From Candidatus Lloydbacteria bacterium RIFCSPHIGHO2_02_FULL_50_18 (GTDB taxonomy: Bacteria > Patescibacteriota > Minisyncoccia > Phycocordibacterales > UBA6899): a stretch of 64,000 nt of DNA. Positions 7,235 to 64,000 of the stretch are shown piece after piece. The translations under genes were made by a program, and so were the position numbers. Location of the stretch: positions 64,001 through 128,000 of the forward strand of contig MHLM01000004.1 of the NCBI GenBank assembly GCA_001821395.1. The letters run 5' to 3'. Below the pieces are notes generated by a model that worked only from the letters and a program-made list of their open reading frames with translations, was not told the DNA's origin and ran no database searches. How positions within the stretch are numbered: position 1 is the stretch's first letter; every line of letters starts with the position of its first letter.

Positions 7235-9130
7235 ATGATTCAAGAGACCGCTCTTACTATTATGAAAACGGGGGCGAATGTATTCCTCACGGGGGAGCCC
7301 GGGAGCGGTAAAACGCATACCGTAAACGCATATATCCGCTACCTCCGCGAGCACAACGTCAATCCTTCGATCACTGCTTCAACGGGTATCGCCGCGACGC
7401 ACGTCGGCGGGATGACCATTCATTCATGGAGCGGTATCGGCATCAAGCGTGCGCTCACCGAATATGACCTCGATGCGCTGTCCTCGAACGAAGGACTTGT
7501 GAAGCGTATCGCCAATGCAAAGGTGCTTATCATCGATGAGATATCGATGCTCGACGGCAACACGCTGGTCATGGTGGAGGCGGTCACGCGAACGCTTCGT
7601 CGCAAGCACGAGCCTTTCGGCGGACTGCAGATAATTTTCGTCGGCGATTTCTTTCAGCTGCCTCCCATCGCGGACCGGGCAAGCGGTGTTCGTGCGCAGT
7701 TTTGTTTCGAATCAACAGCATGGCGAGTGGCGAATCCCATAGTGTGCTATCTCTCCGAGCAGCACCGTCAGGAAGACACCGCGTTTCTCTCTACGCTTGG
7801 CGCCATTCGCCGCGGAGAGCTCGAGGATAGCGTCTTTGAATATATCGGCGAGAGGCACGTGCTCCCAGGTGAGCATCCACACGACATTCCGCAGCTCTAT
7901 ACGCACAACATTGATGTCGACAAAAAGAATACGGAAGAGCTCGCAAAACTTGAAACGGAAGAAAAGGTCTTTCTCATGAGCACGAAGGGGACGAGCAATC
8001 GCGTGGAGCAGCTGATCAAGGGCTGTCTTTCACCCGAGGAACTGGTGTTGAAAGAAGGCGCATCGGTGATGTTCACCAAAAATAATTTTGAAAACGGCTA
8101 TGTGAACGGCACATTGGGGACGGTGGTGGGATTCGACGAGGACAATGGTTTTCCAATTGTTGAAACATCGGGCGGAGAAAATATTACCGCGCTTCCTTCC
8201 GAATGGGCCGTTGATGATTCTGGGAAAGTGCTCGCCACCATCACTCAGGTACCGCTCCGACTCGCGTGGGCTATTACCGTGCACAAGAGCCAGGGGATGA
8301 GCCTTGATGCCGCGACGATGGATCTCTCGCGCGCATTTGAATACGGGCAAGGGTATGTGGCACTCTCTCGTGTACGCGCATTCTCGGGATTGCACATCCT
8401 CGGCATCAATCAGCGCGCATTCGAGGTGCACCCTCTTGTGCTTGAGCGCGACCTCGCGTTTCACGAGCGTTCGGATGAAGCGGAGGCGGGGTTTCTCGAC
8501 ATGTCGGACGCCGACCTCCGGAAGTTACACGAGAACTTTTTACTCGCCATTGGAGGGAATCTGGCGAAAAAAGAAATCATTGCCAAGGCATTCGGTGTTC
8601 CAAAACTGAGTACGTATGAAGAAACGCTCGCGCTCCTCAGCCCCGGGATGACGCTCGCCGCGATTGCCAAGCGTCGGGACGTGACCGAGGGGACGATCGT
8701 GGGCCATATCGAAGAACTCGCGCTACTCGGAAAGCTCCCGTCGATAGACATCGCCGCCTTTGCCGAGCTTCCTGCGTCGGTGGTGAAGGAGATAACGCAA
8801 ACGATCGAGACGATCGGAGGAGAATTTCTCAAGCCGCTCTACCTTGAATTGGATGAACGTTATTCTTATGAAACGATCCGTCTTGTTCGATTCGGAGCGG
8901 GCATTGCTCCGAAGCAAAAAGACGCCGTCGTTGCGAAAAAAGAAAAGGTAAAAAAGGTGTCACATGAAAAACCCGCAAAGCTCGGAGCGAAGTGGGGAAA
9001 GGAAGAGGAAGAACGACTCACAAAAATGTTCAAAGAGGGAAAGAAGACGAAGGACATCGCACAGACACTTGAACGGCAGTCGGGGGGTATCCGTGCTCGT
9101 TTGAAGAAGCTGGGGCTGATAAAAAAATAG
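7235..9130 (+). CDS. PIF1/RecD-family ATP-dependent DNA helicase with C-terminal HTH-like domains
   Basis: Walker A GEPGSGKT, Walker B LIIDEISM, the QLPPI motif and VHKSQG. The C-terminal roughly 190 aa carry HTH-like segments. Confidence 0.75.
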   Translation: MIQETALTIMKTGANVFLTGEPGSGKTHTVNAYIRYLREHNVNPSITASTGIAATHVGGMTIHSWSGIGIKRALTEYDLDALSSNEGLVKRIANAKVLIIDEISMLDGNTLVMVEAVTRTLRRKHEPFGGLQIIFVGDFFQLPPIADRASGVRAQFCFESTAWRVANPIVCYLSEQHRQEDTAFLSTLGAIRRGELEDSVFEYIGERHVLPGEHPHDIPQLYTHNIDVDKKNTEELAKLETEEKVFLMSTKGTSNRVEQLIKGCLSPEELVLKEGASVMFTKNNFENGYVNGTLGTVVGFDEDNGFPIVETSGGENITALPSEWAVDDSGKVLATITQVPLRLAWAITVHKSQGMSLDAATMDLSRAFEYGQGYVALSRVRAFSGLHILGINQRAFEVHPLVLERDLAFHERSDEAEAGFLDMSDADLRKLHENFLLAIGGNLAKKEIIAKAFGVPKLSTYEETLALLSPGMTLAAIAKRRDVTEGTIVGHIEELALLGKLPSIDIAAFAELPASVVKEITQTIETIGGEFLKPLYLELDERYSYETIRLVRFGAGIAPKQKDAVVAKKEKVKKVSHEKPAKLGAKWGKEEEERLTKMFKEGKKTKDIAQTLERQSGGIRARLKKLGLIKK

Positions 9131-11060: not shown

Positions 11061-12053
11061 GTGATGATCAAAGCATTTTTTGGAGACAAGAAGTGGTTCT
11101 GGTGGGCGTACGGCGGACTTGTGTTCTTGCTCTGTTCGCTCTATGCGCAGGTGCACATGACGGTGCTTTTGAATGACTGGTATGGACGCTTCTACGACAT
11201 GATGGGCGATGTGTCAGCGCACAATCTCGACCAATTCTGGAAAGAGTTGATGAATTTCTTTTACATTGCGATCCCATATTCAATCCTTGCCAGTATTACT
11301 GGGTATTTTACAAGGCACTATGGGTTTGCGTGGAGGGAGGCAATCACTATGAGCTACCTTCCTAAATGGCGGAATGTGAAAATTGAGATCGAGGGAGCAA
11401 GCCAGCGTATCCAAGAGGACGCATCGCGTTTTGCAAAGATCGTCGAGTCACTCGGACTTCAGGTTGCTCGTGCCGTCATGGTACTCATTGCATTCCTTCC
11501 TGTGCTTTGGACATTGAGTTCACATATTCCGCTTCCATATTTCGGGCCCGTAGCTGGTTCGCTGGTGTGGGTGGCGCTGTGCACAAGCTTGGGTGGCATG
11601 ACGATTTCTTGGTTCGTCGGATATTATCTTCCGAAGCTGCAGTATAACAATGACGTTGTCGAGGCGCGCTTTCGCAAGGAGCTCGTGTATGGCGAAGATG
11701 ATAAGCAAAATCACGCGTCGATTCCGACACTACTCGAGATGTTCACCAGCGTGCGACTCAACTATCGGCGACTGTTCCTGCATTACGGGTATTTTGATCT
11801 CTGGTCTAATTTGTACGGTCAGATTATGGTACTTGTGCCGTTCATGATCGCAGGGCCGAACCTCTTTCTCCCCGCAGGTACCACAGGATTGATCACACTT
11901 GGAGTGCTGATGAAGGTCAGTAATGCCTTTGATAAGGTGCATTCGAGCTTTTCGCTTTTCATCGACAATTGGACGACGGTGACGGAACTCAGGAGTATCT
12001 GGAGGCGCCTGCATGAGTTTGAGCGAAACATCGACAAGCATCAGATGACATAA
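11061..12053 (+). CDS. SbmA/BacA-family inner-membrane peptide transporter (short form)
   Basis: Family-typical motifs NDWYGRFYD, RWREAI, GASQRIQEDASRFA, IAFLPVLWTLSSHIP, KELVYGEDD and NWTTVTELRSIWRRL. Confidence 0.75.
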   Translation: MMIKAFFGDKKWFWWAYGGLVFLLCSLYAQVHMTVLLNDWYGRFYDMMGDVSAHNLDQFWKELMNFFYIAIPYSILASITGYFTRHYGFAWREAITMSYLPKWRNVKIEIEGASQRIQEDASRFAKIVESLGLQVARAVMVLIAFLPVLWTLSSHIPLPYFGPVAGSLVWVALCTSLGGMTISWFVGYYLPKLQYNNDVVEARFRKELVYGEDDKQNHASIPTLLEMFTSVRLNYRRLFLHYGYFDLWSNLYGQIMVLVPFMIAGPNLFLPAGTTGLITLGVLMKVSNAFDKVHSSFSLFIDNWTTVTELRSIWRRLHEFERNIDKHQMT

Positions 12054-12941: not shown

Positions 12942-13012
12942 TGCGGGTTCGTCTAATGGTAGGACATCGCCCTCTGGAGGCGAGTATTGGGGTTCGAGTC
13001 CCTGACCCGCAG
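12942..13012 (+). tRNA. tRNA-Gln (anticodon CTG)
   Basis: U1:A72 acceptor stem TGCGGGT/ACCCGCA, D-arm GTCT..GGAC, anticodon stem TCGCC/GGCGA with loop CTCTGGA, T-loop TTCGAGT, and discriminator G. CCA is not encoded. Confidence 0.8.
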
Positions 13013-13018
13013 CAAATG

Positions 13019-13824: not shown

Positions 13825-14040
13825 ATAGACAAAACCCTCCTCGTGAACAAACCGCCATAAATAGTACACCAGTAGCTTTGAGAGTCAAGAATGATCAGAA
13901 AATGTAGCAAGTGCACCTAGTGCTCTTCGTATCAGATATATCGACACCAAGTCATCCGACCAAGGTGGGCTTGACTGACCACGGTTTTATCTAGGGTCGG
14001 CCAGCTTTTAAAAACAGAAAAGCGGTATAATTCAGAGTAT

Positions 14041-14394
14041 ATGAATATTTCTAAGAAAAAATTTGTTGCCCTCTTCCTCATTTCTGCGTTTGCCTTTCAA
14101 TTCATCTCCAACTCACTTTTTGGGTCAGACGTTCGACTCTTTCCTCAGAAAGGGGAGTCTTTGTTGGGGACGGATCCACAAATAGGCTGGAAGAGTGCCG
14201 GATACAAAATTCAATTGCCTATCAAAATTGTTTTGATGGGACCCATGCTGCTTTCTACTGATTTTTTGCGAGATGATCCACCACCTCCATTTGTTGCCGC
14301 TGTATTTGCTCTCTACTGGTCGATCCTTGCCTTATTTATTTACTATCTTATCGGTATTATAAGTAGAAGACATCCTCTATGTGTTTCTGCTTGA
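14041..14394 (+). CDS. Hypothetical membrane or secreted protein
   Basis: N-terminal hydrophobic segment plus a C-terminal TM. AT-rich. No homology recognised. Confidence 0.3.
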
Positions 14395-14548
14395 GTGCTT
14401 GGGTAATTTTGTGAGCAAGGAGGAGAGATGGGTTATATCTGTTTTGTTCAAGCGAAATAATTGTTTGTCTGGTTACTCCTGCAAGTTCAGCAAGTTTTTC
14501 TTGCGTAAGGTTTAATTTATTTCGATAAAGAGCAATGTTTGTTTCCAT
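14357..14548 (-). CDS. XRE-family helix-turn-helix transcriptional regulator (63 aa)
   Basis: [35 protein letters not shown] is a classic Cro/C1 HTH. Confidence 0.8.
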
Positions 14549-14550
14549 TT

Positions 14551-14979
14551 TTAATTTTTCTTATCTAAATAGAAATTTGAAGCGGCTTTAACGATAGTAC
14601 CAACGATGAGAGCTAATAAGATCACCGGATCAACTCTCGTGATCTCGTTTACAACAATGCCTGCGGCAATCTGATAACCGATGCCTGCGGTGAGCACTAC
14701 TAAGATAGCCCAAAGGGCATTTCGCTCAGAGATCGCTTCGTGTATTATATCCCGCTCGTCTTTCGGCACATGAACCATCATAGCTATGAAATCGATACCA
14801 AAAACGATCGCCCACAATGAGAGCAATACTACTTGCGTTGACCCAATGACATTCATTTCAGTTATGACAATTATCGGCAGTATCATAACGACAATATATG
14901 CCCAGCCTTGCCAAGTAGAAGGTGTCAGCCCCCAGCCCGTATACTTTCTTCTTTTGAACCACTCCGGTTTTGCGATCAT
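14551..14979 (-). CDS. DUF2178-like membrane protein, partner of the XRE regulator
   Basis: Four TMs. Abuts the small HTH gene, a common HTH plus DUF2178 pairing. The start is taken at the internal Met MIAKPEWF. Confidence 0.45.
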
Positions 14980-15278
14980 ATAATTATGTTTATTACTAAT
15001 GTAATATATACTATACGTAAAATATATATTACACAAGCGCTATTGCGGATAACTTGCATTACGGGTAAAAGTTTCACTGCGGATATTGAATGCTAAGTCA
15101 GGAGATCGTTTTGGGCGGTCTTCCGGGGTGCCTCTTCGTGAGACCCTGAAAGGTAGTTTGTAGGGCAATGCGTCGTCTTCACTCCATCTTTTTCGCCTCT
15201 AATATTTATGCTTCTTCTAACTTAAATAGGTTCCAGTTTGTTCCTGACGCGCAGTATTTTTTTTGGTATGCTCATTTT

Positions 15279-15605
15279 ATGAAGATAGTAAATCCAAGAG
15301 TCGTCCCTGATGTAGCTCAAAAATATATCATCGCCAAGATTTTCAATAGCGATGAACTTCTGCTTTGGGGCGATCCAGAAATCGAATGGCATAAGGACAT
15401 TGCAGAAGAAATGGGTGACGCAGGCCTCGTTGTTGAATGGGTAAGGGGAGGAGGAAGATTGAAATTCGTGACTGATTCGAAAACTATTTATGTCTGGGGT
15501 AAAAGTAGTATGTATGGAGCCGCGTCATTTCGGGAAGCGAAGAACATTTTGAGGATCGCTTATTCTGACTATGACATTCTTAATGAGATCCCTCCAGAAG
15601 AATAG
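15279..15605 (+). CDS. Hypothetical protein
   Basis: ORF only. The start is ambiguous (15168 or 15279). Confidence 0.3.
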   Translation: MKIVNPRVVPDVAQKYIIAKIFNSDELLLWGDPEIEWHKDIAEEMGDAGLVVEWVRGGGRLKFVTDSKTIYVWGKSSMYGAASFREAKNILRIAYSDYDILNEIPPEE

Positions 15606-15684
15606 TTCCAACGTCGTCCCCTGCATCTAATTTGATAAATGCGCTAATCTTGCTGATTGGCATTTTTTAAAGCCAATGTCTGTT

Positions 15685-15990
15685 TTATGAAAAATCTCGT
15701 TTCCCTTCCCAGGGGATACCCCCGTAGTCCAATAATAGTTCTTCACCAGATCGAATATCTCTTGAGGAGATAAAATAAAATTTATCTCCATTTTGTAACA
15801 GCCCTATGTTGGGATCTTGTGAATGATTTATTTTCTCTCCGAGGCTCGTTCTCGCATAATCCACATCAGGATTTCCCGTGGTGCTAATTCTTTTGAATCC
15901 TAACCCGATATTCTCACCGCAGACGATATTATCTCTAGTGAAAACTCCATGCCCCGCAATATTTGATCCCTTTATTTCGAGGTTGACCAT
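15685..15990 (-). CDS. SET-domain protein (putative protein lysine methyltransferase), 101 aa
   Basis: NHSQDPN (an NHSCxPN-like motif) and ELLLDYG (an ELxxDY motif). Confidence 0.65.
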   Translation of the reverse strand: MVNLEIKGSNIAGHGVFTRDNIVCGENIGLGFKRISTTGNPDVDYARTSLGEKINHSQDPNIGLLQNGDKFYFISSRDIRSGEELLLDYGGIPWEGKRDFS

Positions 15991-16020
15991 TGCTTTGATT
16001 ATAGCTTTTTGTTAATTTCC

Positions 16021-16506
16021 TCATCGTCTCCATCCCGCATCATCGAATCGTGCGCCATCTCCGTTGAGGTATTTTTGCATCATTTCCTTTGCTGGCCCTC
16101 GGCGCACCCATGCATCATTGACTCCCGTCATGTCGACAAGAATACCTGCAGTGATGATTGCAACAATGAATCCCGCGATGATGATCTTGAAATCTATCTT
16201 GTAGGAAAAATCATAGCGTCGGAGCAACCATATTCCGAGAACGAGTCCGAGTATCGCAAATACGGGCGCCCACCACGGGAAACTCGAAAGAAATTGCTCA
16301 AGGCGATATTCTCCCATTGGTCCGTGCGACCGAGAAAGAAAACGCAGTAATCCAAAAAGGAAAACTGAGACAACTATTGAAGAGACCAACCCCAAGAAGG
16401 TGAGTAGTGATCCGAGAATAAAGTATATCTTTGGGCGGGGTTTTATCTGCTCACCATGGATCTTTCCCATGATGGTGTCGGTGATGTTGTTTAATTCTTT
16501 TGACAT
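16021..16506 (-). CDS. Putative anti-sigma factor or membrane protein cotranscribed with the ECF sigma
   Basis: Overlaps the sigma gene by 16 nt. Has a cytoplasmic N-terminus followed by 3-4 TMs. Confidence 0.4.
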   Translation of the reverse strand: MSKELNNITDTIMGKIHGEQIKPRPKIYFILGSLLTFLGLVSSIVVSVFLFGLLRFLSRSHGPMGEYRLEQFLSSFPWWAPVFAILGLVLGIWLLRRYDFSYKIDFKIIIAGFIVAIITAGILVDMTGVNDAWVRRGPAKEMMQKYLNGDGARFDDAGWRR

Positions 16507-17033
16507 AAGTGTTTCATTAAGGCTTTTGCGCGACTTACGCGCGTCGCAACGGTACCCATTGGTATGCGCAGGATGTCGCTGATCTCTGCATACGACTTCT
16601 CTTCTATATAATACAACGTGAGCGGTTCAGCGTAGAGGAGGGGTATCTGTTCGAGGCACTTCGTCACCATCTCCACTGTTTCTTTTTGCTCGAATTCCTT
16701 TTCGATGTCTTCATCACTTACAAAATCCGCAGTATCCAAGAGAGGGACTTCACTCGGATATTTTTTGATGATGTTGAGTGCCACATTATGTGCAATACGA
16801 TATATCCAGCTCGAAAATTTCTTTTTTACGTCAAAACCGTTGAGATTGATGTACGCGTTAATGAAGGCTTCCTGGACGACGTCGGTCGCCATGTGTTCAT
16901 CCTTGATGAGGTGAGTGACGTAGCGGAGTAGTTTGTGTTGATATCGCTCAATGAGTATAGCGTAAAGATCCCGATCAGTTGATCGAACTTTTTCAACTAT
17001 TGCTTCATCTGAAAGTTTTTCGTTCTCGTCCAT
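16491..17033 (-). CDS. RNA polymerase sigma-70 factor, ECF subfamily
   Basis: Region 2 (DVVQEAFINAY) and a region 4 HTH (SYAEISDILRIPMGTVATRVSRA). Confidence 0.85.
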   Translation of the reverse strand: MDENEKLSDEAIVEKVRSTDRDLYAILIERYQHKLLRYVTHLIKDEHMATDVVQEAFINAYINLNGFDVKKKFSSWIYRIAHNVALNIIKKYPSEVPLLDTADFVSDEDIEKEFEQKETVEMVTKCLEQIPLLYAEPLTLYYIEEKSYAEISDILRIPMGTVATRVSRAKALMKHLCQKN

Positions 17034-17120
17034 ATAAAAATTCTACTCAGTATTATTGATCATGTACACTAAATCCCCGATCGTGACTCGGGGTAGTGTG
17101 CTTGGGGGTTGTGCTTTTGC

Positions 17121-17492
17121 TTAACGATTCATGTGCCTGCCCATCCCTTTTCCTCGTCCTTCTCCACCTCCAACACCGAGGCCAAGTTCTTGGCGGATCT
17201 TTTGTGCTTCAGCGATCTTTCCTTGCTCTGCCAATTCATGAGCCTCAGCAAATTTTGCAAAGTTCCCCTGATTGATGACTTCCGTTGCTCGTCCTCGTCC
17301 TTGCATCAGCTCTTTCCATGCATTGTAATCCTTCTGCTCAAATACCTTCTCCATTGCCTCATGGCGCTCTGTGCTGTAGTTTGGACCTTTAACGCTAGGG
17401 TCTCCTCTATATGCAAGCGCAGCGCTCGCGGATACCCCGAGTCCTCCAAGGACAAGTGCTGCAACTCCTAAGCCGAATAGTTTTTTGTTCAT
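17121..17492 (-). CDS. Small secreted protein with a Gly-rich C-terminus
   Basis: Signal peptide MNKKLFGLGVAALVLGGLGVSASA. Confidence 0.45.
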   Translation of the reverse strand: MNKKLFGLGVAALVLGGLGVSASAALAYRGDPSVKGPNYSTERHEAMEKVFEQKDYNAWKELMQGRGRATEVINQGNFAKFAEAHELAEQGKIAEAQKIRQELGLGVGGGEGRGKGMGRHMNR

Positions 17493-17741
17493 ATGTGTTT
17501 CTCTTTAGATCAATGATTAATTTCAACCCCCTCCACTATTAATACAAGCTCAGGGAGTATTTTCTTTCATCGGTGAAAATTGCCCGAATTTCAACGTTTA
17601 TTCTCGGTCTTTACGATGGTCTTTTCCGTTGCGAGGGAGGAATGACCCGTGTGAGCTACGATCAGCGGATCGAATGACGCCTGTTGACAGTCGTTGTCTT
17701 CTTTTGACACACTTACTGAGTGAGAAGCAGGTAAAGAAATC

Positions 17742-18815
17742 ATGCATAAAGGGTACAAGCCGATAAAATTCCCGGAAGATGAATCAATCCACGATTATAT
17801 CGTTGAGTGGTGGTATTTTAACGGCCACCTGAAAGATGCAGATGGCAATGAATATCCTTTTATGGACTGTCTGTTCAAGGTGGATATGAAGAAGGTGAAA
17901 AGACCTTTTTTGAGTCGGCTGCGGATCAAAACAGCCTACTTCTCTCATTTCTCTCTTTCGGACCTAACGAATAAAAGTTTTAATCAGCGGATAGCTCCTC
18001 TTTCGCTTGTTTCCGACGATAGCTTTTCTAAACCGCTCCTCTACATTAGTTATATCAATCCCACCGTCAAAAATAGTTACACGAACTGTGTCATTGAAAA
18101 AATAGGTGAGTCAGTTTATCATCTAAAAAATGAGGACATTGATCTCCAGTTAACGTCAGTGAAGGAGCCGCTGCTCGAAGGGGGAAACGGATTTCTCGAT
18201 TTCCATTCTCGGACAACCTATTATTACTCCTTAACGAATCTCAGAACGGTAGGAAAAATAAAGGTCAATGACAAATGGATAACTGTTACCGGCAAGTCCT
18301 GGATGGATCACCAATGGGCGGATGCGAGTTATTCCGTGAATAGGTGGGATTGGTTCTCGGTGCAATTCGATGATGATACGGAAATGGTCTGCTGTGTATA
18401 TGACGATGGCAAGGTCAAGACTTTTTTTGCCGACATTTCGTATCCGGATGGTACAGAGGGGCATTACACTGAGATCGAGATCATTCCTTTGGATAAGCAT
18501 TGGACAAGTCCAAAAAGCAAGGCGGTCTATCCAGTCTCATGGAGCATTACGATACCGGAAAAAAACATAGAGGTGAATCTGACTGCAGTGATCGAAGGTC
18601 AGGAAATGCTTTTTGGGTCAATTAATTATTGGGAGGGTCCGCTTAAGGTGGAGGGTTCATTCGGGGATAAGAGGGTAATCGGTGTCGGCTTCATGGAATT
18701 GGTCGGCTATCCATCAGAGTACAGTAATGTGAGATATCTCAAGGATGAGATCGGTAAGGTCGCAAGTTGGTTTATGTTAGCAATAAGGAAAAGGGCCCCC
18801 ACCCGTGGCTCGTAG
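17742..18815 (+). CDS. AttH/CrtC-like lipocalin-fold protein (COG5621-type predicted secreted hydrolase/hydratase)
   Basis: FPEDESIHDYIVEWWYFNGHL signature of the CrtC/AttH family. Confidence 0.6.
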   Translation: MHKGYKPIKFPEDESIHDYIVEWWYFNGHLKDADGNEYPFMDCLFKVDMKKVKRPFLSRLRIKTAYFSHFSLSDLTNKSFNQRIAPLSLVSDDSFSKPLLYISYINPTVKNSYTNCVIEKIGESVYHLKNEDIDLQLTSVKEPLLEGGNGFLDFHSRTTYYYSLTNLRTVGKIKVNDKWITVTGKSWMDHQWADASYSVNRWDWFSVQFDDDTEMVCCVYDDGKVKTFFADISYPDGTEGHYTEIEIIPLDKHWTSPKSKAVYPVSWSITIPEKNIEVNLTAVIEGQEMLFGSINYWEGPLKVEGSFGDKRVIGVGFMELVGYPSEYSNVRYLKDEIGKVASWFMLAIRKRAPTRGS

Positions 18816-20041: not shown

Positions 20042-20932
20042 TCACTGTTCCGCCCGCCCCATTTTGTCCAGTGTCTTTTTGAAACCCTCAATGCGACCCA
20101 TCAGCACCATGTGGAGTAGCTCTACGGGGTCAAGGTCGGCATGTTTTTCAAAAGCATCATGTGACGTGAAAACCTCCGTCGCGGGAGCGGCGCTTGCGGC
20201 AATGATCGAGCGAAAAAATTCTTTCCCCTCCTCACCTGCAAATCGCTCATGAAGTTCGGATAATTTTTCTTTCAGATGCGCGATCGTTTCAGGACTCATG
20301 AACTGCAATCGTGCGATGAGCGAATCACGATTCGTGGGAGCTCGAAGAAAATTATCCGCATCCTCGCCAAAGTCAAAGTGGACCATTTTTCCATCTTTAT
20401 ATGTGGCATTGTTCGCCCAATTACTCTGCGGATTGAAAAGGTGATCCTTGCTGTTGAAGAGATACTCGAGGAGTAATTGCTCAGACGCGAGCTCTTCTTT
20501 TGAAGTGTCGTTCTCGATCTTTTGGAGCGGCATTTTTCGTGAATAGTATCGTTCTTTTCCTTCTTCATCCGGAACGGTCACGACGTCGGCTACGTTAAGT
20601 ACGCCTTTCAGCATACGTGCGACCACCTGCTGCCCTCGTGGGTCATTTTTATTCGAAAGTTCATAATATGTTTCCCCATCGGCTGTTCGGACGGGAAGGC
20701 TGTATTCATTGAGCGGACGAATGAGTTTGACGCGCATCTCATCGGGGGGGAGCATGGAATATGTCGTTGGGTCGGCCTCGTTGGTGGCTTCATTCACCCC
20801 CGTTTTCACCTCGTCGTCTTGTGCATTGAATGATTCATTTCTCATTGCTTCAGCGTACGAGAGAAAAGAGAAATACTCAAGCGCAAAAGCAGTTCCGGGG
20901 TCGCCGAAGGCACTCGCAAAACTCTTTCCCAC
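20042..20932 (-). CDS. Hypothetical protein (296 aa)
   Basis: Long ORF with no recognisable motifs. Confidence 0.4.
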   Translation of the reverse strand: MGKSFASAFGDPGTAFALEYFSFLSYAEAMRNESFNAQDDEVKTGVNEATNEADPTTYSMLPPDEMRVKLIRPLNEYSLPVRTADGETYYELSNKNDPRGQQVVARMLKGVLNVADVVTVPDEEGKERYYSRKMPLQKIENDTSKEELASEQLLLEYLFNSKDHLFNPQSNWANNATYKDGKMVHFDFGEDADNFLRAPTNRDSLIARLQFMSPETIAHLKEKLSELHERFAGEEGKEFFRSIIAASAAPATEVFTSHDAFEKHADLDPVELLHMVLMGRIEGFKKTLDKMGRAEQ

Positions 20933-29181: not shown

Positions 29182-29644
29182 AACAGATCTCCTTAATGGT
29201 GAACAACGTTGAACTCTGCCCCATTGTTTATCACCTCTCTATTCCCGTGTCAAACGTTATGGCAAAATAAGCCGTACGATGTCCGGATAAATGAATGACG
29301 CTTTACGAGTAAATTATTGGCGCGTACCATTGTCTCTATGTTATCATCATTTTTGTCGTGGGGGGGGGCTCGATGGCGACGCAAAGATCGCTCAGTGGAA
29401 AAAACAGGTGGAAGGATTTATGCCTATCATTTCCGGCGCACGCATGGAAGAGGATTATCTCAATTTTGCTTTTCTGCAAAAAATCAGCACTCCCGCATCG
29501 GGAAAAGCATCTGCATAGCGGTTTCGGTCGGTATGTACTCGGTCATTTTAGTTGCATAATGAGTGCGCGCAAGTGCCTTCTTGCTTGGAATTGGCCGAAT
29601 GGGGTGGTACAGTTAACCCGTAGTTAATTACATAATAAAAAGAT

Positions 29645-45456: not shown

Positions 45457-45639
45457 TCTTCGGTCATTTGTTTTCTGCACGCTAATGCGGTGCATGATGC
45501 ATGTTTGTGAATCCTTTTTTATTGCATAAACATTATTTCCGCCGACATGATGCGTTATCGAGTTGCAAGTTTTATATAGTTGGTGCAAAATAGTAGGATG
45601 ATAGAGTCAGGTGATCACGAACAGAAGGAGGTCAAAAAG

Positions 45640-45915
45640 TTGCTTGATCGTCTGTGTGGCGATAGGGAAGAGGGTCGCTTCGTTTCGCGATCGATGATCC
45701 TTATGACATGCGCAGTACTGCTCATCGTGACCGCTGGGCTGTTCTTTTCAACGCACAAGATGACGCAAGCGCGATTAATGAATCCGCCACTCGCCACAGA
45801 AAAGACCCCCCCCATCAGTCCACAGGAATGGAATACTCGCCTTAATGATGTTGGGATGATCCTTCACCCCGAATTGGCATCTTCCACCCAGAAAGTGGAT
45901 TCGTCGGATATTTAA
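45640..45915 (+). CDS. Small hypothetical membrane-anchored protein containing a C9 homopolymer
   Basis: An AGAAGGAGG ribosome-binding site lies upstream of TTG 45640. One TM. C9 tract at 45805..45813. Confidence 0.3.
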   Translation: MLDRLCGDREEGRFVSRSMILMTCAVLLIVTAGLFFSTHKMTQARLMNPPLATEKTPPISPQEWNTRLNDVGMILHPELASSTQKVDSSDI

Positions 45916-45937: not shown

Positions 45938-48900
45938 ATGAATTATTTTTATTCCCTGATCTTTGCTGTTCTATTCGTCATCACACCCCTTGTTTCCTCC
46001 GCGTACGACGGAGCATTTCTTGTCCCGAGTTGGACAAATCCGCTTCCAACGGCAGTGTACGCATTTAGTACTAGCGTTATCGTCACGGGGAGTTGGCAAT
46101 TGCCGGCGGATTGGATCGGAAAAATTTATGTGTATCAGGATGCATTATTGGGTCCGGATGATTCACTGCTTACGCAGGGGACGCAAATGACCGACGTGGG
46201 CGGAAATAACGGTTATACAATAGATAATACGGGAGGGGCCACAACGAAGACCGGCACTTTCAGTTTTGATGTCGGAGCACAGCTGCCCGGTCTGCACAAC
46301 ATCCATCTCGAATTTTGGGGGGGTGAAGTCTGTGCTATCAATAAGGCGCTGAACGATTTGAACGGTACAAATTTCATTCCGTCATGTCCGATCACTGCGG
46401 ACAATGCGGCTTTTAATATTGTTTGGCCAGCTCGAAAATATACGGTTGGTAACCCCTTATTTCCAAGTATGACGGTTACTCCGAGTAGTGATCCCGCACT
46501 CAATTTTCTTAATGTCGAATTTGGTTCACCGCAGACCCTCACCTTTACTATTGGAAACACGGGGGGACAAACGCTCTCTGGGTCTATCTCAGGGATCACA
46601 AGTCCTTTTTCCTGTTCTCCATCGTGTAATTATGCCGTGAACCCTAATACGTCGCAGAATATCACTATTCAATACGTGCCACCTCCGGCACCGGATTCAT
46701 CCGATCAAACATTCGTCTTTAGTTGTGTCGGAGCATCCTTGGGGTGCGCGAAGGTTTCTGCCTCACTGCCCGTCGTCATTGTCGCTCAACCATCTGAATC
46801 GAGACACGTTATCGCAAATTCCGTCACGAATAGCGTTTCGCCAAACATTATTGTGACCCCTGCTTTGGTGAATTACGGTAGCCTCAACCTCGGCGTCCCG
46901 GTTGCTGACCGGCCATTTGTCGTGAAGAATACGGGCGGAGGATATCTCAATGGTGTGGTGTCCTTTAGCACACCTGAATATTCTTGCACCGGTCCATGTA
47001 GTTATAGCGTTTCGGCTGGCGGGCAAACGACCATTTGGGTTCATTATATTCCGTCCGTTGCCGGTACGTTCAATGATACTGCCACTTTTGGCGGTGGTCT
47101 GGGGCAGGTAGTAGCACTGAGTTCGGTGGTCAATGATAAACCGATTATTTTGGTCGGAACTACTCTTATAGATTTTTATGCAATTAACGGCAATAAACCG
47201 GTCAATGTCGGTTCTTGCAAGTCATATTCCTCGTGGGTGAAAAATATTGGCGCGAGTACACTCTCAGGGTCCGTCACGAATGTACCGCTCGCGACGCCAC
47301 CGATGAGTGATCCAACTGTTAATCCTCTTTTTACGTGCACGGCGGGGTGTACCTATAATAATTTGACGAACGGTCAATGGCAATGGTTCACGATCCAGTA
47401 TTGCCCTACCATTAATGGAACGGAAGCGGGGACAGCGATACTCACAAATGCATTGAACGCACCAAATACTGCAACAATTAATCTCACAGGCAGAGGGAAC
47501 ACACAGCCAATAGGAACACTTAGTTCGTCGCTCATTTTTGGAAATGTGCTCATCAATACCACTAAACAAATCACGTTTACTATCATGAATACCGGCGTTG
47601 GTGTGTTGAGCGGGTCCGTTGGTGCTTTGCCGGTTCAATTTGCTTGTGATTTGGGTTGCACCTACAATATTCCCGCCGGGGGAAGCGCATCCGTAACGCT
47701 TTCATTTAATCCGCTCCTCGTTCAATCCTATGGGGGGACCGTTAATTTTTCGGGGATTGGAGATTTTTCAGTGAGTGGGTCCGGAGTACAACCCATCTTT
47801 CAGGCGAGCTGGGATAATTGGCCTTATTACCATTCAAATAAGTGCCCCGGAGCAACATGTCTCGATCCGGAGATCAAGGATTATGACATTGGGGCAACTA
47901 CATTCACCGGGAATCTGAATTTAGCTGTTCAGTATAAAAACTTTTATCTTTATGCAATGAATAAGGGTACCGGGGCAAATATTACCTATTCATTTCCGAA
48001 TACGGCGCATTTTAAATGTATCGCCGTATATTACACCGGTACGGTTGGTGCCGGTGGTTGCAGTGGTACGCTGTTACCGTTCTTGTCAGCAAGTTATCAG
48101 TACCTATTCCGCCCAACCTATCAGTTCCAACCGGATGCGGCAGGGGACTTCAGCGAACCGCTTACGATTACCTATGATTACGGATTTGGACCGCAGACAA
48201 AGACCGTGAACCTCGTCGGACATTCCATCAGCGCCCCATTCCTTGATGTTTCTCCGACTGGGATACGCACGATCGTTCCGAATACGCCCGTGGGAACAAA
48301 CCCCTCACCGAAGGCAGTCTACACCGTGACAAATCTCGGAGTCGGTCCAATGGATTATAGTGTAACGGGGATCCCCGTTGGAAGTCCTTTTTCCTGCATC
48401 ACGAATTGTAGTATGGTCGGTCTAATGCCGAACACCCCTGTTACTGTTGAGTTTGAGTTCACTCCGACAGATGCCCTGACGACCATTATCTCACCGTGGT
48501 TCAACTCCACCGGCGGAAATCTGCAAAGAACCATCAAGGGAACGGGAAGCGTCAGTCCGGTTACTGGCTTGGTTCCACCTTCAATTTTTTATCCTGATAC
48601 AAACATGGGGCAGTTCACCAATCGCACGGTCAGAGTCACAAACTCCGGACTCGGAACACTCTCCGGCGTTGTTACTCCCGTTGCCCCATCAGGTCTCGAT
48701 TTTTTCTGTATCACGAATTGCGGCTATTCACTCACTGCGGGTCAAAGCACCGATAGTGTGAGCGATCCCGTTATCCAGTTTCGTCCGATGCAAACGGGTC
48801 CGTTGAATGCAACGATAGATTTTTCCGGAGGATCAAACGGTGTTCAGTCGGTCTCGGTATTTGGCACTGCTATCTTTGCGCCCATCATTGACATTCGCGG

Positions 48901-49222
48901 AGCAGACACAAATTTTGGCACGGTCGTGATCACCAAGTATAAAGATCGCGTTTTCACGGTAAAAAATTCAGGAACCTCAGATCTCGGAAGTGGAACATTC
49001 TCTGTCACGGGTCCTTTTTCCTGCGTCGACCCCGTCGACCCAATCGATGGTCTTTGTCACTATTCCCTAAATGGAGGCACGGAGGTGACTATCACCATTC
49101 GGTTTAGCCCTATGACGGTCGGTCCGGCGAGTGGCGCCGTATCCCTTTCGGGAGTACCGATCGCTCGATTTTTCGTGAATGGTCAAGGTGGTCAACCTGT
49201 GTTCATTTTCAGAGAGATCTGA
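45938..49222 (+). CDS. Giant secreted protein (1094 aa) of about 8 tandem Ig-like repeats (choice-of-anchor-D/ASH-like)
   Basis: Signal peptide. A recurring unit of about 100 aa: V.N.G...L.G.V....F.C...C.Y.L..G.S..V...F.P...G. Confidence 0.7.
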   Translation: MNYFYSLIFAVLFVITPLVSSAYDGAFLVPSWTNPLPTAVYAFSTSVIVTGSWQLPADWIGKIYVYQDALLGPDDSLLTQGTQMTDVGGNNGYTIDNTGGATTKTGTFSFDVGAQLPGLHNIHLEFWGGEVCAINKALNDLNGTNFIPSCPITADNAAFNIVWPARKYTVGNPLFPSMTVTPSSDPALNFLNVEFGSPQTLTFTIGNTGGQTLSGSISGITSPFSCSPSCNYAVNPNTSQNITIQYVPPPAPDSSDQTFVFSCVGASLGCAKVSASLPVVIVAQPSESRHVIANSVTNSVSPNIIVTPALVNYGSLNLGVPVADRPFVVKNTGGGYLNGVVSFSTPEYSCTGPCSYSVSAGGQTTIWVHYIPSVAGTFNDTATFGGGLGQVVALSSVVNDKPIILVGTTLIDFYAINGNKPVNVGSCKSYSSWVKNIGASTLSGSVTNVPLATPPMSDPTVNPLFTCTAGCTYNNLTNGQWQWFTIQYCPTINGTEAGTAILTNALNAPNTATINLTGRGNTQPIGTLSSSLIFGNVLINTTKQITFTIMNTGVGVLSGSVGALPVQFACDLGCTYNIPAGGSASVTLSFNPLLVQSYGGTVNFSGIGDFSVSGSGVQPIFQASWDNWPYYHSNKCPGATCLDPEIKDYDIGATTFTGNLNLAVQYKNFYLYAMNKGTGANITYSFPNTAHFKCIAVYYTGTVGAGGCSGTLLPFLSASYQYLFRPTYQFQPDAAGDFSEPLTITYDYGFGPQTKTVNLVGHSISAPFLDVSPTGIRTIVPNTPVGTNPSPKAVYTVTNLGVGPMDYSVTGIPVGSPFSCITNCSMVGLMPNTPVTVEFEFTPTDALTTIISPWFNSTGGNLQRTIKGTGSVSPVTGLVPPSIFYPDTNMGQFTNRTVRVTNSGLGTLSGVVTPVAPSGLDFFCITNCGYSLTAGQSTDSVSDPVIQFRPMQTGPLNATIDFSGGSNGVQSVSVFGTAIFAPIIDIRGADTNFGTVVITKYKDRVFTVKNSGTSDLGSGTFSVTGPFSCVDPVDPIDGLCHYSLNGGTEVTITIRFSPMTVGPASGAVSLSGVPIARFFVNGQGGQPVFIFREI

Positions 49223-49329: not shown

Positions 49330-49360
49330 GGAGGGCCTAGCGCCCTCCTTTTGTTTTTTC
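49330..49360 (+). terminator. Rho-independent terminator
   Basis: GGAGGGC-ctagc-GCCCTCC followed by TTTTGTTTTTT. Confidence 0.65.
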
Positions 49361-61551: not shown

Positions 61552-61626
61552 TCCGGTGTAGCTCAGTGGTAGAGCAGTGCGCTGTTAACGCATTGGTCGC
61601 AGGTTCGAATCCTGCCGCCGGAGCCA
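61552..61626 (+). tRNA. tRNA-Asn (anticodon GTT), CCA encoded
   Basis: U1:A72 acceptor stem TCCGGTG/CGCCGGA, anticodon loop CTGTTAA, T-loop TTCGAAT and a 3' CCA. Confidence 0.85.
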
Positions 61627-61958: not shown

Positions 61959-63557
61959 ATGAAAAAATACATATCCATAGCTTTCATTATTGTTGTGGTT
62001 ATTGGTGTTTTTTTATTTTTTCTTGGTAGTTCTACCAACAATAATCTCATTGGAGATAGCGTTAGGATGACCCGCTTACTCGTCAATGGGGTACCTTCGA
62101 GCGGTGGTTTTGTGAATGTGACTTATTTGGAAAGTGAGGAAAAATATCCTGTGATAAATATTGCGGTGGACTTAAACAAAGACGGTGTTATCAAGTCTTA
62201 CGAGGTTGATGGGGGTATTCAGGAAGAATGGCTTGTCACGAATATGTATGCCCAAGTGGTTGGTGGGTCAAAAAATAATTACTCTATTTCTATAAAAGAC
62301 ACAAAACTTGATAGTAAAACTGACCTGCCGGTGTATGTAGTCTTAAGTGAAAATGAGATAAAAGACTGGTCTGGTGAAAAAGTTTCCGGAGGTATATATA
62401 AAGAAATTTTATTATCCAAAATAGATACAATGGATTATGGATCACTGTATGCTCCGGATCCGGAAGGTGAGCGGGCCGGTGGGTCACCATTGGGTTCTGT
62501 TCTGTCCAATAAGGTTTTTGCATATGATGCCGTTAATGAATACAGGACAGATGTTCCTGACATTGATCAGGGGTACAACGAGTGTGTCCCCACGTCCATC
62601 GCCAATTCACTTTTATGGTTAGCTGATAAATATAAGTTTCTCGATAAATTGCCAAAGGGGGGTGATAAAGATTTAATCGCTGAGCTTAAGAGTGACTTAA
62701 AATGGACAAAGTATGGTGTTTTGCATAAAGACATTGTTCCCGGAATAAAAACTTTTATTAAGAGACATAAACTCTTGTTGGAAGCGCATCAAATAGGAGA
62801 AATTAGAGACGACGAAATCATGGCTAAAATAGCGGGGGAGCTTAAAAGGGGACAGGATGTTGAGGGTTGGCTGGAATATCGAGGATATTTTAAAAATGAT
62901 TCCTATCTGCGTAAGGGTGCTCACGTGGTTACGGTGGTTGGTGTTTGGACAAGTCCTCAAGGCACAAAATTTATCGGGTTAAATGATCCTCTGTCTCAAG
63001 GGGGTCATGCGACAGATATTTATGAACTCAGTGGAGTGCAGGTTCTCGATTATGCTTTTCAGGGTGATTATGAGACATATCTCATTTCCGCTTTTGCTGA
63101 GTCACCCATTTCTGAAGAGGAGGTTATGCCGTCTGTTACCATAGATAATTCAAGTATTAAATTAATAAAAGAAACTCATCCTTCCGGTGGAACCACGCGC
63201 ACTTGTTTGGTCACATTGTCAGGAACAGCTACCGGACCGGAGTGCAGTTATGTAACGCTTCAGGGTGGCAAACCTGGCACTGGGTCTACGATGGATATGA
63301 ATGGGGCGGAAAGTTGCCCAGATTGGTCATATTGGGGTACGAGTGGATTTTGTGTTCGTCATCTTAAGCAAAATAATACTACAGCATGGAGTGTTACTTT
63401 TGAGGCTTCTACGTATTGGGGTAAAACTGATTTAGATTTTAGTATAATGTTGGGGGCACCAAAACTGCCTCTCGAAGATCTTTATGGAGGAAATGTTTGT
63501 GCCTCAACTGAAACAGATCAAAAAATATACGATACAATATCTTTGGAGTGTAAGTAA
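61959..63557 (+). CDS. Secreted protein with a predicted papain-like (C39-like) cysteine peptidase domain, in an AT-rich island-like context
   Basis: Signal anchor. YNECVPTSIANSLLWL Cys motif and a GAHVVTVVGV His motif. Visibly lower G+C than the neighbouring genes. Confidence 0.45.
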   Translation: MKKYISIAFIIVVVIGVFLFFLGSSTNNNLIGDSVRMTRLLVNGVPSSGGFVNVTYLESEEKYPVINIAVDLNKDGVIKSYEVDGGIQEEWLVTNMYAQVVGGSKNNYSISIKDTKLDSKTDLPVYVVLSENEIKDWSGEKVSGGIYKEILLSKIDTMDYGSLYAPDPEGERAGGSPLGSVLSNKVFAYDAVNEYRTDVPDIDQGYNECVPTSIANSLLWLADKYKFLDKLPKGGDKDLIAELKSDLKWTKYGVLHKDIVPGIKTFIKRHKLLLEAHQIGEIRDDEIMAKIAGELKRGQDVEGWLEYRGYFKNDSYLRKGAHVVTVVGVWTSPQGTKFIGLNDPLSQGGHATDIYELSGVQVLDYAFQGDYETYLISAFAESPISEEEVMPSVTIDNSSIKLIKETHPSGGTTRTCLVTLSGTATGPECSYVTLQGGKPGTGSTMDMNGAESCPDWSYWGTSGFCVRHLKQNNTTAWSVTFEASTYWGKTDLDFSIMLGAPKLPLEDLYGGNVCASTETDQKIYDTISLECK

Positions 63558-63799
63558 TGTATAGCGGATAGAATTCCTTGAAGAACCGGACCTATTTGAA
63601 TAAAAGCAAAAGAAAAACACCGCGTTGAGGATGTTTTTCTTTTGTTGATGCTTCGTGCAGCGAGCGGAGCTCGCTGGCTGGAACCGAACACCGGAGTATA
63701 AATTTTCAGCAGAAAATATTACGAGGCGGTGCGCAGACCAAAATGTTGCGACGGCAATATTTTGCGTCGCAGGAGAAATTCCTGCCGCCGGAGTCTTTC

Positions 63800-63994
63800 T
63801 TACGGACTGCACCGTAACTTATCACGGTAGATAATGGAGACGAGAGCAAAGCTCAAAATAAGCAGAAGGAACCACGAACCGATCTTATGAAGTGAGACAA
63901 GGTGCCAGTACTCCAACTGATTTGGGTAGAGCCAAATGTGGGTAAGAGTACCGATATTTTCCGCTATCCAAACAAATAGCGCTGTCAAAAACAC
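63800..63994 (-). CDS. Hypothetical membrane protein, possibly truncated by the window end
   Basis: Hydrophobic ORF at the window edge. Confidence 0.2.
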   Translation of the reverse strand: MFLTALFVWIAENIGTLTHIWLYPNQLEYWHLVSLHKIGSWFLLLILSFALVSIIYRDKLRCSP

Positions 63995-64000
63995 TGTTAA

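Follow-up and report, generated by a model that had tools for sequence, protein, structure and literature searches.

Tandem modules of about 100 amino acids (aa) with an immunoglobulin (Ig)-like fold are characteristic of large exported bacterial proteins of the choice-of-anchor D family (NCBIfam NF012200). The family owes its name to the variety of C-terminal sorting signals (PEP-CTERM, LPXTG, the C-terminal domain (CTD) of the type IX secretion system (T9SS) and others) with which its exported proteins terminate; this variety is a property of the family rather than of each member. The ASH, HYDIN-VesB-CFA65-like Ig and Cep192 domains, with the PapD-like/MSP-type Ig fold, belong to ciliary and centrosomal scaffolds, which are eukaryotic and intracellular. 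Bacterial fibrillar Ig-repeat adhesins include the Big-domain invasin/intimin/Lig proteins and the RTX adhesins, and in the SlaA/SlaB system of Sulfolobales a large beta-sandwich-rich outer protein is encoded beside a smaller single-pass membrane anchor. Here we describe a pair of genes in a 64,000-nucleotide stretch of DNA (the window) from Candidatus Lloydbacteria bacterium RIFCSPHIGHO2_02_FULL_50_18 (contig MHLM01000004.1, positions 64,001 to 128,000), an ultra-small and uncultured inhabitant of groundwater. The large gene (45938..49222, + strand) encodes a 1094-aa repeat protein, which curated criteria place among the choice-of-anchor D / ASH Ig-like repeat families, and the small gene upstream of it (45598..45915, + strand) encodes a 105-aa membrane protein, referred to here as its partner. 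With a probability of roughly 0.55, the pair constitutes a two-gene surface module, in which a non-enzymatic Ig-array adhesin or spacer is kept on the cell by the small partner.

Similarly to the NF012200 proteins, the large protein is an exported bacterial protein made of tandem Ig-like modules, and a named choice-of-anchor D member from Candidatus Eisenbacteria (P0014) is a detectable homologue of it. Three features nevertheless distinguish its Parcubacteria clade from this family, namely a CxxxC hairpin pair of Cys residues, the absence of the alternative sorting signals and the coupling to a dedicated gene for a small membrane protein. With the ASH-type domains the large protein shares scores above the gathering thresholds and the best structural matches. 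The likeness is, however, at the level of the domain fold only (9-16% identity, whole-chain template modelling scores (TM-scores) of approximately 0.1-0.3), and unlike the eukaryotic scaffolds the protein is bacterial, exported and probably disulfide-bonded. An export signal, a tandem beta-sandwich stalk and ligand-binding inserts (here LamG in paralogues) are reminiscent of the fibrillar Ig-repeat adhesins, but the repeat family is a different one and the large protein has no outer-membrane beta-barrel, type I secretion system (T1SS) signal or sortase motif, in a comparison for which no dedicated search was made. Unlike recently amplified adhesin repeats, its repeats are fixed in number and old (20-34% pairwise identity). 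The gene logic of a large outer protein beside a small single-pass membrane protein is that of SlaA/SlaB. This is a functional analogy only, since no sequence relationship was found and the partner has only about 100 aa with a post-transmembrane region of about 55 aa.

The large protein and its modules

The open reading frame (ORF) of the large gene has the position and length given in an earlier note on this DNA, and it is also, as claimed there, the largest gene in the window, the second-longest ORF encoding only 631 aa. The product is already deposited (OGZ06116.1 / UniRef A0A1G2CXL4) under the labels 'hypothetical protein A2845_01725' and 'ASH domain-containing protein', and in kind it is an ordinary protein that has been labeled automatically. 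Its signal peptide is followed by an N-terminal module, by seven canonical repeats (R1-R7) with one divergent repeat between R4 and R5, and by a short tail that is conserved:

45938..49222 (+): large gene, 1094-aa exported choice-of-anchor D / ASH repeat protein, ATG start
45938..46003 (+): Sec-type signal peptide, aa 1-22, predicted cleavage between SSA and YDG
46004..46456 (+): N-terminal module, aa 23-173, an FN3/Ig-like beta-sandwich that includes a short helix and the invariant C132/C150 pair
46457..46762 (+): Repeat 1, aa 174-275, C226xxxC230, plus C263/C270
46829..47134 (+): Repeat 2, aa 298-399, C350xxxC354
47135..47488 (+): Repeat 3, aa 400-517 (hidden Markov model (HMM) core 422-517), C467xxxC471, long loop insert, extra C427/C489
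47489..47776 (+): Repeat 4, aa 518-613 (HMM copy 520-613), C570xxxC574
47777..48244 (+): eighth module, divergent, aa 614-769, C636/C641, C694/C708
48245..48544 (+): Repeat 5, aa 770-869, C820xxxC824
48545..48868 (+): Repeat 6, aa 870-977, C924xxxC928
48869..49153 (+): Repeat 7, aa 978-1072, C1029x10C1040
49154..49219 (+): conserved C-terminal tail, family consensus ...FFVxGxGVxPSVKFIEQ-COOH
49330..49358 (+): intrinsic terminator with a 7-bp stem (6 G-C pairs), free energy (dG) -14.4 kcal/mol, and a T-run

Against NF012200 the large protein scores 138.6 bits (E 1.1e-40), the curated cut-off being 45 bits, with six matched stretches, the best of which (aa 970-1070) covers profile positions 1-101 of 108. 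Three Pfam families are also matched above their cut-offs (given second): PF22544 (HYDIN_VesB_CFA65-like_Ig) with 64.4 and 25.5 bits, PF15780 (ASH) with 51.2 and 27 bits, and PF22073 (Cep192_D4) with 53.9 and 35.5 bits. The AlphaFold2 (AF2) model is all-beta with a mean predicted local distance difference test (pLDDT) score of 76, and its best Foldseek matches in the PDB are ciliary central-pair ASH arrays (7som_D, 9ijj and 7sqc; E 1e-40 to 1e-27), followed by arrays of macroglobulin (MG) domains. The N-terminal module resembles a generic FN3/Ig sandwich. The resemblance to choice-of-anchor D/ASH repeats that had been noticed from the sequence alone is thus fully supported. Hits to unrelated enzymatic domains, which would have spoken for another kind of protein, are missing, as no enzymatic Pfam or NCBIfam family is listed at E<=1 and no enzyme is among the listed structural matches. 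Besides NF012200, no NCBIfam family is listed at E<=1.

The repeats are too diverged to be seen by simple self-comparison. Self-BLASTP of the large protein gave no off-diagonal matches, because the repeats are old and only 20-34% identical to each other. An HMM anchored on the Cys motifs, however, recovered seven strong repeats of approximately 100 aa each and one weak copy at about aa 652-740. To guard against circularity, a leave-one-out test was used, in which each repeat scored 30-58 bits against the model of the other six, the best of 200 shuffled versions of that repeat reaching no more than 16 bits. The derived consensus (ftV.N.G.g.LsGsV......FsC...C.Y.l..G.....ti.f.P...g) is the motif recorded in the earlier note, whose tandem periodicity and 'about 8' repeats are a fair description of seven clear copies and a divergent one. 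The divergent module matches the repeat model weakly (E 4e-5 over aa 652-740) and is beta-rich in the AF2 model. A search of the window with the repeat HMM revealed a single copy of the large gene.

A Cys pair is present in all seven canonical repeats (six CxxxC and one Cx10C) and is kept in orthologues, in agreement with the pair per repeat that had been proposed. Across 11 homologues, down to 38% identity, the repeat Cys residues are invariant or nearly so, save C574, which is missing from the conserved positions of the alignment and is possibly misaligned. In the AF2 model each pair flanks the turn between consecutive strands (e.g., E224-227/E231-234 around C226/C230, and E348-351/E355-359), and probably forms a disulfide, so that each module would have one stapled hairpin. 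The spacing sets the clade apart from generic choice-of-anchor D relatives: while this Parcubacteria clade has [FYW]xCxxxCx[YFM] across one hairpin, this pattern is found zero times in P0012, P0014, P0017, P0018 and P0020-P0024, which have 8-44 Cx(6-13)C pairs instead, and only one or two stray CxxxC are carried by P0012 and P0014. Among the canonical repeats, only R7 (Cx10C) has the typical Cx(6-13)C spacing. The CxxxC spacing is a clade-specific variation and no curated criterion.

A Sec signal peptide on the large protein is well supported by its sequence. Residues 1-22 form the sole strongly hydrophobic window, the N-termini of the orthologues have a K/R-hydrophobic-AxA layout followed directly by a mature N-terminus that is conserved, and A22 does not vary among the aligned homologues. 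The signal peptide noted previously therefore stands, and cleavage would be expected after A22. The mature form has a computed mass of approximately 112 kDa and a pI of 4.8. Thr, Gly, Ser, Val, Pro and Asn are abundant in the large protein, charged residues are scarce and there are 24 Cys. The final 60 aa contain no LPXTG-like motif, and a second hydrophobic segment is likewise absent. The lack of a known C-terminal sorting signal is unusual for a family named after its alternative anchors.

Full-length homologues are few and include three proteins of approximately 1100 aa (61-89% identity), a type of approximately 1025 aa (40%) and a type of approximately 1520 aa with a LamG insertion. In the species-representative genomes, searched with two peptide patterns, homologues were found at seven loci, all of them in Patescibacteria/Paceibacterota or in unclassified metagenome-assembled genomes (MAGs). 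R7, which also matches NF012200 best, is the most conserved module, with a mean identity of 64% in P0004-P0011 vs. 33-49% for the other modules, and together with the tail it is by far the best-conserved portion of the protein, whereas R3 and R5 are the most variable modules across paralogues. The paralogues of approximately 1520 aa have an insertion of approximately 440-485 alignment columns in the R5 loop, after aa 810-814, and LamG (PF13385/PF02210) is annotated in P0004-P0008.

The small partner gene and its linkage to the large gene

The start of the partner gene is placed at the ATG at 45598, as the resulting 105-aa product exactly matches the deposited protein OGZ06115.1. The sequences of both genes are already public, and what is new is their pairing and co-duplication. 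In the partner, an acidic/charged N-terminus of about 30 aa precedes a transmembrane helix (aa 32-50), behind which a Pro-rich spacer leads to a conserved motif and finally to a tail rich in Ser and Thr:

45598..45915 (+): partner gene, 105-aa single-pass membrane protein OGZ06115.1
45691..45747 (+): transmembrane helix SMILMTCAVLLIVTAGLFF, Kyte-Doolittle mean 2.39 over 19 aa
45784..45885 (+): conserved post-transmembrane motif, family consensus PLPPEKxPPVSPxEWNSRIxDLGxLxHPELAST
45806..45813 (+): C8 homopolymer, encoding Thr70-Pro71-Pro72 of the conserved motif

A hydrophobic block is found at the equivalent position in all aligned partner homologues, and in an alignment of 11 sequences P64 is invariant and N79 nearly so. 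The family, which is small and unnamed, comprises 25 clusters in a set of 5.8 billion proteins and 72 representatives among 1.84 billion proteins, nearly all of the latter shorter than 160 aa. No Pfam family was found for the partner (best E 0.004-0.3, scattered over unrelated families), nor was a PDB relative (E >= 0.9). A 'FliL' label given by JGI to a single family member is unsupported by any Pfam match. In nearly all members a CxxC motif with nearly invariant C27 and C30 directly precedes the transmembrane helix, whereas the partner encoded in the window and its 89%-identical orthologue have GRFVSRS instead. A zf-HC2 anti-sigma-like interpretation of the CxxC is not supported, given the inconsistent His spacing and the absence of the motif from the window copy.

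A small upstream ORF had been pointed out before for a C9 tract, but the tract is in fact C8, and the ORF matters as a conserved partner gene rather than through this tract. C8 is the sole C run of at least 7 in the window. Phase variation through it was considered and rejected: it encodes a conserved Thr-Pro-Pro, and in an orthologous locus of 89% identity (L003) the homopolymer is interrupted (CCCCCCTC), so that nothing speaks for a conserved slippage switch. G/C homopolymers are generally rare in the window. Besides C8 there are one G9 (29360-29368) and two G7 runs (20744-20750 and 46317-46323), the latter of which lies inside the large gene and, by its coordinates, spans Trp-Gly-Gly codons (G128 and G129 are invariant). 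No evidence was found of a phase-variation role for the G9 or G7 runs of the window.

Wherever the DNA upstream of a large homologue is available, a partner homologue is found directly in front of the large gene. A partner HMM built from four seed sequences was tested on non-seed loci and matched upstream of the large gene in all five of them (L003, L004, L005, L006 and L009; E 7.5e-27 to 1.3e-11), and L012 and L014 share the same small-then-large arrangement. Small and large gene are separated by 14-22 nt in eight of the nine pairs measured, including the window (22 nt), and by 63 nt in L004. No convincing terminator was seen between the small and the large gene, and the strong one predicted earlier 3' of the large gene is indeed there. 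The pair is found in two unrelated neighborhoods, between MgsA and malic enzyme (the window and L003) and between EF-Ts and PheS (L001, L002, L004 and L012), and therefore moves as a unit.

The pairing extends to duplicated copies. Where large paralogues stand in tandem (L001 and L014), each has its own small gene, and small and large proteins pair by type across contigs. For 11 pairs the distance matrices of small and large proteins are strongly correlated (Mantel r 0.85, reached in 0/5000 permutations). Matched matrices and pairing by type indicate co-inheritance and co-duplication, which is no proof of contact. Two forms of physical fusion were considered and rejected. A frameshift fusion of the two ORFs is contradicted by their different frames, and the in-frame extension of the large ORF starts only at 45860, 3' of the C-tract, and the corresponding extensions in L001 and L002 have no overlap with the small ORF. 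A fused small and large protein of the Rosetta-stone type was found neither among the homologues nor among the 72 representatives, so that no Rosetta-stone support for a physical linkage exists.

Two related MAGs have two tandem small genes before one large gene (L005 1901-2697 and L006 2197-2981), and the ratio of small to large genes is thus not always 1:1. At the EF-Ts..PheS loci an ORF of approximately 124-127 aa lies between EF-Ts and the first partner gene (L001 4907-5281, L004 4976-5359 and L012 6504-6878). It has no Pfam match, and nothing comparable was seen immediately upstream in the window.

Genomic setting and other features of the window

The MAG from which OGZ06115.1 and OGZ06116.1 derive belongs to the RIFCSPHIGHO2 series from Rifle aquifer groundwater, and the Lloydbacteria are part of the Parcubacteria group of Patescibacteria. 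In the window the gene pair lies among ordinary chromosomal genes, with those for a P-type ATPase, M15 and M50 peptidases and MgsA to one side of it and those for malic enzyme, ZIP, an NfeD-like protein and TerC to the other.

Elsewhere in the window, a stretch of low GC content (0.405-0.45 vs. approximately 0.50 elsewhere) at 14000-18000, downstream of tRNA-Gln (12942-13013), holds small ORFs and may be an acquired island. Judged by eye, ORF 16491-17033 (-) reads like an ECF-type (extracytoplasmic function) sigma factor, for which a membrane protein at 16021-16506 (-) could be the anti-sigma partner, and an NHS..PN motif in ORF 15685-15990 (-) recalls SET domains. Another low-GC region (0.416 over 62001-64000) follows tRNA-Asn (61552-61626), and a 532-aa ORF lying in it at 61959-63557 (+) has no Pfam match at E<=1e-5. 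Three genes seem unusual for a reduced Patescibacteria genome, encoding a CrtC-like lipocalin protein (17742-18815), an SbmA/BacA-like transporter (11061-12053) and a PIF1-like helicase with HTH_40 (7235-9130).

Proposed function and alternative explanations

The two-gene surface module could work as follows. The genes would be co-transcribed and closed by the single terminator 3' of the large gene. The large product would leave the cell via Sec, lose its signal peptide and fold extracellularly into about ten beta-sandwich modules, the N-terminal FN3/Ig-like one and eight of the ASH / choice-of-anchor D type. With conserved Cys pairs bracketing one beta-hairpin in seven of the eight ASH modules, the array would be semi-rigid and probably disulfide-stabilized. 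The partner, presumably oriented N-in/C-out, would tether the large protein, which lacks a sorting signal of its own, and its post-transmembrane EWNxRIxELGxxxHPEL is a candidate docking site. R7 and the tail, as the constant C-terminal end, would most likely be the base, from which the variable modules, including the LamG lectin-like insertion of the paralogues, would project outward and may bind a partner cell, a host surface or a polymer.

The role of a surface adhesin for host or partner attachment, suggested already in the earlier note, is plausible and would fit the export signal, the Ig array, the LamG domain of the paralogues and the episymbiotic relatives. Its plausibility comes from related lineages: members of Parcubacteria/Paceibacteria lineages are physically attached ectosymbionts of methanogens (10.1101/2022.04.20.488981; PMC9763046), and genetics in Saccharibacteria, the only Patescibacteria system tractable to it, shows that epibiotic growth requires adhesins (PMC10633639). 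A bolder and distinctly tentative proposal is that the pair represents an undescribed two-component surface display of Parcubacteria-group bacteria, in which the EWNxRIxELGxxxHPEL peptide of the partner would non-covalently capture the C-terminal module of the large protein and take the place of the sortase, PEP-CTERM or T9SS-type anchors of other family members, and which would build either host-contact fibers or the surface layer observed on such ultra-small cells.

Several observations weigh against a tethered adhesin. Adjacency and correlated trees are to be expected of any linked pair and are no proof of a physical interaction. A Shine-Dalgarno sequence cannot be seen ahead of the large gene, and since the partner encoded in the window has no membrane-proximal CxxC, part of its function may differ from that of the other family members. 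In addition, all modules are collinear at 40-89% identity with their number fixed per paralogue type, and the neighborhood in other genomes is a housekeeping one, both of which suit a structural envelope protein better than a fast-evolving adhesin.

The latter two points feed the main rival explanation, by which the large protein would form a lattice or canopy of the envelope, similar to a surface layer (S-layer) or sheath, with the partner as its membrane stalk and with host contact secondary at most. Its acidic, Thr/Ser-rich composition and an apparent S-layer seen on a related lineage (10.1101/2022.04.20.488981) would be in line with this. We nevertheless regard such a layer as unlikely. 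Genomes or contigs may carry up to two or three divergent paralogous modules of varied lengths, some with the LamG insertion, and 24 Cys are unusual for S-layer proteins. The family is also narrow, as seen from the seven loci and the 72 small-protein representatives, whereas envelope layers are widespread in the group. Slightly less likely still is that the large protein is released as an extracellular binding or matrix protein, the partner being not an anchor but a helper in export or folding or a regulator of the large gene. The missing anchor signal would agree with release, and so would the lack of any fusion among the representatives (0/72). The charged, predicted cytoplasmic N-terminus of the partner (approximately 30 aa), with the CxxC of most members, could signal or assist assembly. 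Strict one-to-one pairing and co-duplication by type are, however, more typical of stoichiometric partners, and the conservation of the partner lies mainly in its post-transmembrane region.

Structural similarity alone could also bring to mind a protease trap of the alpha-2-macroglobulin (A2M)/complement type, as Foldseek lists chains of complement C5, A2M, CD109 and ECAM with E-values of 1e-13 to 1e-19. These matches, however, are to generic MG beta-sandwich arrays, with TM-scores of 0.11-0.16. The large protein has no thioester motif (CGEQ/CLEQ), and its all-beta AF2 model has no helical thioester domain. An enzyme hidden in the unmatched regions fares no better, as the two regions without Pfam matches are beta-sandwiches and no enzymatic family is listed at E<=1, as described above. 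An A2M-like or enzymatic role is therefore essentially excluded, and the adhesin or spacer held by its small partner is the explanation that we favor.

Host recognition and the makeup of the surface layer are little known for the ultra-small cells of the Patescibacteria, or candidate phyla radiation (CPR), outside a few cultivated Saccharibacteria. If the partner proves not to be an anchor, the large gene would be just another case of a repeat-protein class that is widespread. The locus is a concrete candidate, testable by sequence, for one Parcubacteria lineage, combining a Cys-paired Ig array with a dedicated tiny membrane partner. Should the partner indeed anchor the large protein, choice-of-anchor D proteins would have a new mode of display, and the pair would offer handles to label or pull down host ligands from groundwater communities.

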